From: Candidatus Krumholzibacteriia bacterium
GTDB taxonomy: Bacteria; Krumholzibacteriota; Krumholzibacteriia; LZORAL124-64-63
DNA length: 31,669 nt
Assembly (NCBI GenBank): GCA_030643455.1
Contig: DAOWLV010000001.1
Location: 1-31,669, forward strand
Reading direction: 5' to 3'
Shown here: in pieces, positions 22,468 to 22,810 of the stretch
How the letters are laid out: each line of letters opens with the position of its first letter
Position numbering within the stretch: position 1 is the stretch's first letter
Notes under the pieces: model-generated
The model's database searches: none
What the model saw: only the letters and a program-made list of their open reading frames with translations
Told to the model about the DNA's origin: nothing
Made by a program: the position numbers and the translations under genes

Positions 22468-22483
22468 TGGTATGGGCCCTGCA
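22468..22483 (+). promoter_or_regulatory. Sigma-54 (-24/-12) promoter P1; predicted TSS ~22494
   Basis: TGGTATG-GGCC-CTGCA: GG at 22469-70 and GC at 22481-82, exactly 10 nt apart, matching TGGYRYR-N4-YYGC; lies ~210 bp downstream of a sigma-54 activator gene. Confidence 0.65.
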
Positions 22484-22492
22484 ATACAGAAC

Positions 22493-22810
22493 ATGAAGGG
22501 GTGAGTTACAGGGATCCTCTTCATAACATTGAATGGTGAAGTGAAATTCGTGTTTTCGGGAGAGTTGAGGTTCTTTTCCACGATGCTTACCGGCAAAAGG
22601 GAGTTCTCAACAAGAAGGGTCGGCGGAAAGATTGTGAAGAGGTGGGGTCGGATCAATCATTTCTCGTCGACAAGAGAGAACCGGAATCCTTTTCTCCCGA
22701 AACACGAATGACAATTGAGGGCCTGGCCAGCAGGTCCTGGAAAAAGAGCCCTTCCCGATCTTGAAACGGCGAGATTCAAGACTGGGGTGCCATAAGGCAG
22801 GGCTCTTTTT
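22493..22810 (+). ncRNA. Candidate structured ~317-nt non-coding RNA
   Basis: Starts at the predicted P1 TSS. Stems read by hand: 22493-501/22516-524 (9 bp); 22546-563/22693-709 (17 bp plus 1 bulge) enclosing 22569-77/22674-82 and 22581-85/22665-69; 22718-25/22731-38 (8 bp); terminal branched stem 22741-52/22799-810 with a U-tract. G-U pairs favour the + strand. No convincing CDS. Confidence 0.55.
22741..22810 (+). terminator. Branched, potentially bidirectional intrinsic terminator
   Basis: Perfect 12-bp inverted repeat AAAAAGAGCCCT/AGGGCTCTTTTT enclosing two inner hairpins (TCTTGAA/TTCAAGA and TGCC-ATAA-GGCA); A5/T5 tracts on both sides. Confidence 0.65.

Follow-up and report, generated by a model that had tools for sequence, protein, structure and literature searches.

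A predicted sigma-54-dependent structured RNA gene beside an enhancer-binding protein gene in Krumholzibacteriota

Introduction

The question raised by the locus described here is what occupies the 870-nt gap between two open reading frames (ORFs), 19123-22254 and 23126-24148, on contig DAOWLV010000001.1 of a Candidatus Krumholzibacteriia genome (assembly GCA_030643455.1), of which positions 1 to 31,669 of the forward strand were analysed (the window, 31,669 nt at its full length). The upstream ORF encodes a candidate sigma-54 activator and the downstream ORF, orf340, is the first gene of an operon for lipoproteins or surface proteins. An initial annotation, made from the sequence alone, had proposed that an unannotated structured RNA of ~317 nt, driven by a sigma-54 promoter, lies immediately 3′ of the activator gene. 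Direct reading of the sequence places this RNA gene within the gap, and the proposal is borne out by a conserved promoter, by covariation, by gene order, by the presence of rpoN and by contigs from RNA libraries. The best explanation is that ~22494-22810 on the + strand is a single-copy gene, equipped with a sigma-54 promoter and a terminator of its own, for a ~317-nt structured non-coding RNA that would act in trans as a regulatory RNA; taken jointly, as one account of the RNA gene, promoter, terminator, locus and trans role, this is held with good confidence.

Identity and extent of the RNA gene

No match to Rfam 15 was obtained at gathering thresholds across the whole window, the RNA region returned only noise up to E = 10, and nothing real was detected in 12 divergent homologue loci. 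This agrees with the initial impression that the RNA does not resemble signal recognition particle (SRP) RNA, transfer-messenger RNA (tmRNA), RNase P RNA or the common riboswitches. A full-text search of the literature found no paper on non-coding RNAs of Krumholzibacteriota or on this RNA family. The RNA represents a family of Krumholzibacteriota that is new to Rfam.

A 391-nt query has a single match in its own genome, the assembly of which comprises 468 contigs and is 76% complete. Elsewhere in the genus one match was found in each of 7 other genomes, with 85-88% identity for RNAs that are complete on their contig, and weaker matches were detected in seven further genera. Among the matches listed, the matching public contigs are assigned to Candidatus Krumholzibacteriia or Krumholzibacteriota. 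Of the six full-length copies from the genus, five match from query position 28-29 onwards and one from position 3, and all six matches end at positions 371-378, which correspond to the U tract. Since position 28-29 is the first base of the proposed promoter (promoter P1), conservation brackets a promoter-to-terminator unit. Searches with a model of the 5′ part of the RNA (R1, see below) detected the RNA exactly once, and in a syntenic position, in each of 61 genomes. The possibility that the sequence is a miniature inverted-repeat transposable element (MITE) or another repeated element, which the initial annotation had named as a finding that would overturn its proposal, is therefore ruled out in favour of an RNA gene. 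The order activator gene, RNA gene, orf340 is kept in 14 of 14 close relatives, so that the cbrB-crcZ-like placement noted at the outset, with the RNA directly 3′ of a co-oriented activator gene, extends beyond the window.

Promoter and terminator

The evidence for promoter P1 is its conservation, since the loose -24/-12 pattern is by itself no rarer than chance in the window (6 matches, with 7.8 expected). The strict pattern YGGYAYR-N4-NTGC lies upstream of 66 of the 68 homologues at a near-fixed distance, and the two remaining homologues have a near variant, GGGTAYG. The spacing from the promoter GC to the base of the first hairpin is typically 8-18 nt. In the second family of Krumholzibacteriota that carries the RNA the flanks are unrelated, yet the element is again near-consensus, TGGCACG-N4-NTGC. 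The genome encodes RpoN (PF04552 match on G000:C125, 3.2e-62), as do four of four relatives, and the sigma-54 promoter originally assigned to the RNA is thus retained.

At the other end, a G+C-rich stem, P8, ends in five U residues, as is characteristic of an intrinsic terminator. A simple terminator scanner did not flag it because P8 encloses two hairpins.

Secondary structure and covariation

The RNA was modelled in two parts, R1 comprising the 5′ hairpin and the core and R2 the 3′ domain (Table 1). Across 68 homologues, double changes occur in 55 of the 58 pairs of R1, 90.4% of cells are paired (71.1% after shuffling) and the covariation score is 0.539, compared with 0.215 for shuffled alignments and at most 0.119 when the partners are slid. 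For R2, with 63 homologues, double changes were found in 26 of 27 pairs, with 91.3% of cells paired (77.0% shuffled) and a score of 0.464 (0.200 shuffled). Covariation among homologues, which had been named as a check on the RNA, therefore stands above the controls in both parts. Both alignments were fitted to their models, which inflates the compensatory counts in favour of structure, but single-sequence folds and the slid controls argue that the structural signal is real. When 20 homologues were folded singly the same architecture emerged (hairpin P1, linker, helix P2, a junction with P3, the P4-P5-P6 arm, P7 and the 3′ domain), and RNAalifold on 14 sequences gave 68 pairs, 33 of them with compensatory changes.

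The hairpin expected at the predicted +1 (~22494) begins at 22495 and shows compensatory changes in 7 of 7 pairs, with 80.7% of cells paired. Its 14-nt loop, L1, carries ACAGGGAU at 22508-22515, and residues A20, G21-G23 and A24 of the loop vary little or not at all. A single-stranded linker (22524-22545) connects this hairpin to the 164-nt core, where the 17-bp closing helix that had been predicted, P2, is confirmed in that all 15 modelled pairs covary. The enclosed sequence had been described as a rod; it is instead a branched domain in which hairpin P3 and the P4-P6 arm meet at a three-way junction. At the tip of the arm, the L6 core GUGGGGU is kept in 68 of 68 homologues and recurs in the divergent RNAs of other families, and the exact L6 11-mer occurs nowhere else in the genome. 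The GGCGAG loop of the 3′ domain is likewise present in 68 of 68 homologues.

In one genus the P3 cap GCUUACCGGC (hairpin part 22584-22595) is replaced by the GNRA-type tetraloops GCGA, GAAA and GCAA, while the rest of the RNA is kept. Because the cap can be exchanged for plain tetraloops in this way, its sequence suggests a possible role as a tertiary-contact element. A kissing interaction between the P3 loop (UACC) and L6 was considered and rejected, as L6 is unchanged in the genus with the tetraloops.

The assignment to the + strand is retained. Over 22494-22812 the folding energy is -120.6 kcal/mol for the + strand (z -4.1), compared with -101.1 kcal/mol for the - strand (z -4.7). With z near -4 on both strands, folding energy does not choose between them, and the two-strand folding proposed at the outset was uninformative. 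In the 68-sequence alignment, G-U or U-G cells outnumber A-C or C-A cells (390 vs 119), which favours the + strand, although the count is biased by the use of a + strand model. Promoter P1 and the terminator are both oriented on the + strand, and this orientation is conserved.

Table 1. Features of the RNA gene and its surroundings (window positions)
Feature	Position	Strand	Description
Second sigma-54 activator gene	17221-18582	+	Receiver domain, AAA+, HTH_8; just upstream of the neighbourhood of the TPR (tetratricopeptide repeat) activator
Upstream gene, candidate activator	19123-22254	+	1043-aa sigma-54 enhancer-binding protein; long TPR region, AAA+ Sigma54_activat, HTH_8
A/T-rich block	22418-22446	+	~25-50 nt upstream of the -24 element; conserved columns in 14-homologue flank alignment
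Sigma-54 promoter P1	22468-22483	+	TGGTATG-N4-CTGCA = TGGTATGGGCCCTGCA; GG 22469-70, GC 22481-82; conserved
Predicted 5′ end (~22494) and hairpin P1	22494-22523	+	22495-22501 pairs with 22516-22522; minimum free energy fold
Branched core domain	22546-22709	+	164 nt; folds of 20 homologues agree
Closing helix P2	22546-22563 with 22693-22709	+	17-bp helix; 15/15 modelled pairs covary
Hairpin P3	22577-22602	+	Cap GCUUACCGGC
Helix P4	22603-22608 with 22676-22681	+	
Internal loop	22608-22617	+	CAACAAGAAG
P5/P6 arm	22617-22671	+	
Apical loop L6	22639-22649	+	GAGGUGGGGUC; core GUGGGGU
Linker hairpin P7	22718-22739	+	Predicted in most homologues, sequence differs in each; absent in G012
3′ domain	22741-22810	+	Three-way-junction intrinsic terminator; model R2
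Terminator stem P8	22741-22751 with 22800-22810	+	10/11 pairs with double changes
Hairpin P9	22754-22786	+	Loop ACGGCGAGA at 22766-22774 (A-N-GGCGAGA)
Hairpin P10	22788-22799	+	Tetraloop-type cap
U tract (U5)	22806-22810	+	Ends stem P8
Sigma-54 promoter P2	23064-23079	+	TGGCACGGACCGTGCG, near-consensus; ~47 nt before ATG 23126; serves downstream operon
Downstream operon, first gene (orf340)	23126-24148	+	340 aa, no Pfam match; lipoprotein-like in relatives

Transcription

Part of the stretch is contained in 20 public sequencing runs from 13 studies, labelled marine sediment, cold seep, hydrothermal vent and similar, 6 of which are RNA libraries. Three RNA runs, from three metatranscriptome studies, and one DNA run were compared over 21900-23400, using assembled contigs, which give neither ends, strand nor level. 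One whole RNA contig of 279 nt covers 22509-22787 (depth 19.1, 9 differences), another of 184 nt covers 22509-22693, and further RNA contig pieces of 115-243 nt span 22545-22872. None of the three RNA runs covers the upstream spacer, 22257-22460, and in two of them the downstream spacer, 22818-23072, is likewise bare, with coverage on the RNA gene and on orf340. In the DNA run, 28 of 30 bins are covered. A transcript had been among the checks named for the proposal, and these contigs from three studies support transcription of the RNA gene as a discrete unit.

Distribution and related RNAs

When 151 genomes of the phylum were searched with R1, exactly one copy was detected in 52 of the 60 genomes of the window's family and in 8 of the 9 genomes of a second Krumholzibacteriota family, and none in seven other families of the phylum. 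A loose pattern scan of the whole collection returned at least 120 stretches, 10 of which were true by nhmmer among the matches listed, a scope on which confinement to the phylum is not claimable. The neighbouring gene orf340 is more widely distributed, with homologues in 119 of the 151 genomes, and ten loci from four R1-negative families were therefore inspected. The activator gene was matched in nine of these and orf340 in all ten, separated by a gap of 0.9-1.4 kb. In nine loci the gap contains a sigma-54 promoter, or a near variant of one, and downstream of it a structured RNA whose overall sequence differs; in the tenth the gap sequence is interrupted. Eight of these RNAs keep an L6-type hairpin, as UUUCGAGAGGUGGGGUCUCGAA in six loci of two families and as a AGGUGGGGUCUC variant in the others.

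Six of the distant loci (L197, L199, L201, L204, L205 and L206), from two other families, carry in the same gap a different-looking sigma-54-driven RNA of 266-324 nt, in which the GAGGUGGGGUC hairpin recurs and a 5′ hairpin, GGAAGUCAUCCCGUGCG...ACUUCC, is conserved. An alifold of the six gave 58 pairs, 14 with compensatory changes. In L200, L202, L203 and L204 the GGAAUGGCGAGAUCC hairpin, which in the window's RNA is part of the terminator domain, stands apart in an element of ~100 nt that possesses a terminator and a C-rich loop (CAUCCCCUCC) of its own, and for which a promoter of the sigma-70 type (TTGACA-N17-TACTAT) can be made out by eye. The RNA of the window may thus be a fused form of two conserved modules, or of two older RNAs, to judge from these comparisons. 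The apparent occurrence of the modules in split or fused form across families is a case of modular RNA evolution that merits a study of its own.

Activator and downstream operon

The protein encoded upstream matches Sigma54_activat (1.1e-63), TPR_12, TPR_MalT and HTH_8 in Pfam, and it is more likely than not to be the driver of promoter P1, the argument being its adjacency to the RNA gene across the phylum. The A/T-rich block upstream of promoter P1, AAACAGCGATTTA, resembles by eye a binding site for integration host factor (IHF), WATCAANNNNTTR.

Promoter P2 would yield a transcript with a ~35-nt leader containing a GGAGG ribosome-binding site ahead of ATG 23126. The promoter is conserved at 64 of 68 loci, where it lies 270-580 nt 3′ of the core domain. 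The sequence TGTCCTTCAA occurs twice upstream of it (22862-22871 and 23021-23030, + strand), and a block, CGTCCCATTTTGGATAATCTGTCC (22848-22863), that is conserved across genera lies just 3′ of the RNA terminator. In other families TGTCC-N8-GGACA palindromes can be seen by eye in the equivalent place. Together the repeats, block and palindromes form a candidate activator site for promoter P2 that is absent upstream of promoter P1.

Possible function

It is proposed that firing of an activator, for which the adjacent TPR protein is the likeliest candidate, would cause the RNA to be made, probably together with the neighbouring operon, after which the RNA would act in trans as a regulatory RNA. 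Its working surfaces would be invariant purine-rich apical loops displayed on covarying helices, namely GUGGGGU (L6), GGCGAGA (L9) and, in the window's family, ACAGGGAU (L1). By analogy with CrcZ, RsmZ and GlmY, binding or sequestration of a protein or other macromolecular partner is the tentatively favoured mode of action, and seed pairing in the style of Hfq-dependent RNAs appears the less likely of the two and, taken alone, unlikely. Hfq was not found in 5 genomes, four of them 94-96% complete, and this result, with the location of the invariant residues in hairpin loops, speaks for a decoy rather than an Hfq-type small RNA. A more specific and rather speculative version would have the invariant loops GUGGGGU and GGCGAGA dock a conserved RNA-binding partner that sets the output of sigma-54-dependent surface proteins, as a phylum-wide module carried on one fused RNA or on two; the partner could even be the TPR activator itself.

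Particular partners were considered. Loop L1 closely resembles the GGA hairpin site of the CsrA type, RUACARGGAUGU. In this genome CsrA is encoded at G000:C266:12346-12498. CsrA was detected in 58 of 58 genomes of the window's family (f1), in 5 of 9 of f6 and in none of 8 each of f4 and f8. Its distribution does not track the RNA, so that CsrA is rejected as a universal partner and could be a family-specific one at most. The 16S rRNA 3′ end is canonical (CACCUCCU) and L6 contains GAGGUG, but a Shine-Dalgarno mimic or sponge was rejected because the invariant core is GUGGGGU, which is all that the GAUGUGGGGUC variants keep. A site near position 893 of 16S rRNA that is complementary to GGUGGGG was also set aside, since it forms part of a structured helix and is not conserved in the second family that carries the RNA.

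Several observations count against one part or another of this account. One RNA contig extends 60 nt beyond the terminator, and two RNA contigs from different studies both begin at 22509, inside the loop of hairpin P1 and 15 nt 3′ of the predicted start; this shared start might reflect RNA processing at that position, a break in assembly at the hairpin, or coincidence. With regard to the activator, no conserved word is common to the regions upstream of promoters P1 and P2 in 64 genomes, those of promoter P1 being A/T-rich (TGTAAA, CTATAAA) and those of promoter P2 being CGTCCCC and GGGACA. A shared upstream activator site was therefore rejected, and neither one shared activator nor, for promoter P1, the adjacent one can be asserted from these words; the second activator gene could serve one of the two promoters. 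With regard to partners, CsrA is absent from one RNA-bearing genus and from f4 and f8, where the related RNA is present, and occurs in f5 and f2, in which no RNA of this kind was detected, and only one high-quality GGA loop (L1) is conserved. Shine-Dalgarno-like sites are not enriched in the RNAs (6.1 per RNA, compared with 5.1 in shuffled sequences), and a search for complementary targets in the genome found none.

Alternative explanations

The alternative that survives best, itself unlikely, is a small RNA that acts by base pairing and has no protein sponge role, in which the G-rich loops or the linker 22524-22545 would pair with C/U-rich sites in mRNAs and control translation or decay. Most known sigma-54-dependent small RNAs, such as Qrr and NrsZ, act by pairing, and this precedent favours it, as does the invariance of the loops across the phylum, which is often seen in seed regions. 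Such an RNA could target genes of its own locus or the activator mRNA, in the way that Qrr targets luxO. In f3, f9 and f8 the C-rich loop (CAUCCCCUCC) of a separate small RNA at the same locus shows partial complementarity to the G-rich loops. The failure to find Hfq, already noted, tells against pairing, however, as does the 16S match, which is not conserved between families. An exact complement of L6 is absent elsewhere in the genome (shorter ones occur too often to be informative), the G-rich leaders of the neighbouring operon resemble the loops instead of complementing them, and a 317-nt scaffold with several junctions exceeds what seed pairing needs.

A cis-acting leader is improbable. 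Transcription from promoter P1 would then read into the operon, with the terminator serving as a regulated attenuator, either a riboswitch or under protein control. The RNA and operon are co-oriented, the contig that runs past the U tract is what such read-through would produce, and junctions and loops are conserved as in ligand-binding RNAs. Set against this, the operon has its own conserved sigma-54 promoter further downstream (64 of 68 loci, see above), the spacer between terminator and operon is silent in two RNA runs in which the RNA gene and orf340 are both covered, and in other families the two conserved modules occur as separate units with their own terminators.

A dual function, in which the RNA would also encode a small peptide, was suggested initially on account of a weak 42-codon ORF (ATG 22583), and a 60-codon frame from TTG 22529 could be considered likewise. 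Although both frames are open in the window copy, only 8 of 68 homologues retain the ATG, the longest frame among homologues varies from 1 to 66 codons, and lengths downstream of the position of the ATG are spread over all three frames (36, 21 and 11). Substitutions track base pairing rather than codons, and the suggestion is not sustained, a coding role being very improbable.

Least tenable is a 6S-like RNA that binds the RNA polymerase holoenzyme, an idea that arose from the long closing helix and for which, in the form of a sigma-54-specific analogue, we know of no precedent however attractive it may be: it is already largely refuted, as the RNA matches neither RF00013 nor any other 6S family, folds around a three-way junction and not as a rod with a central bubble, and shares the genome with a canonical 6S RNA outside the window (G000:C88:12167-12343; RF00013, 80 bits), of which four relatives have one copy each.

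Comparison with known systems

The preferred reading, a trans-acting structured RNA made from its own sigma-54 promoter, finds several counterparts. In the Vibrio Qrr system, small RNAs of ~100 nt are transcribed from sigma-54 promoters activated by an enhancer-binding protein, qrr1 lies beside luxO, and the RNAs are Hfq-dependent and act by pairing. The window's RNA shares with luxO-qrr1 the promoter type and the position beside an activator gene, but is unlike Qrr in its length of ~317 nt, its two multi-helix junctions, the failure to find Hfq and its lack of homology. GlmY, which can be sigma-54-dependent, and RsmZ are structured RNAs whose hairpin loops titrate RapZ and CsrA/RsmA, respectively. 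The window's RNA resembles such decoys in being structured and in the likeness of loop L1 to a CsrA site. Csr/Rsm sponges carry many GGA loops, whereas here a single one is conserved, the distribution of CsrA is mismatched and there is no Rfam match; membership of that class was rejected, since CsrA does not always accompany the RNA.

The closest parallel in arrangement is CrcZ. The CrcZ gene lies directly 3′ of, and co-oriented with, the sigma-54 enhancer-binding protein gene cbrB, and is a separate unit with a sigma-54-dependent promoter (PMC8871633). CrcZ, with CrcY and CrcX, belongs to the Pseudomonadaceae, where the order is conserved across the clade and the RNA, several hundred nt long, serves as a decoy for an RNA-binding protein (PMC8871633). 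The window's RNA is likewise a separate sigma-54 unit of several hundred nt, 3′ of a co-oriented activator gene and in a conserved order, and a decoy role, if the analogy holds, would be a further likeness. There is no homology in sequence or structure, and membership of the CrcZ family was rejected in view of the absence of an Rfam match up to E = 10 and of repeated A-rich motifs. CrcZ has repeated A-rich Hfq/Crc sites, whereas the window's RNA has a single AACAAGAAG stretch and Hfq was not found. The activator here has a TPR input region rather than a receiver domain, and the phylum is a different one.

The RNA is folded far more elaborately than CrcZ or the Qrr RNAs. In this respect it recalls OLE, GOLLD, ROOL and raiA, which are found in particular lineages and combine heavy covariation, several junctions and invariant loop or junction nucleotides with a function yet to be assigned. 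It differs from them in being smaller than most, in having a defined sigma-54 promoter and a fixed gene neighbourhood, and in matching nothing in Rfam 15. It adds a well-supported class of structured RNA from a phylum without a cultured member, and one for which promoter type, ends and genetic neighbourhood are all defined, which is rare for RNAs found by comparative genomics. The covarying scaffold and its three invariant loops provide concrete experimental handles that do not depend on culture. An activator gene followed by a sigma-54-dependent small RNA is an arrangement familiar from Proteobacteria, and its occurrence in Krumholzibacteriota, a phylum of the FCB (Fibrobacteres-Chlorobi-Bacteroidetes) group, suggests that it reflects a general design.

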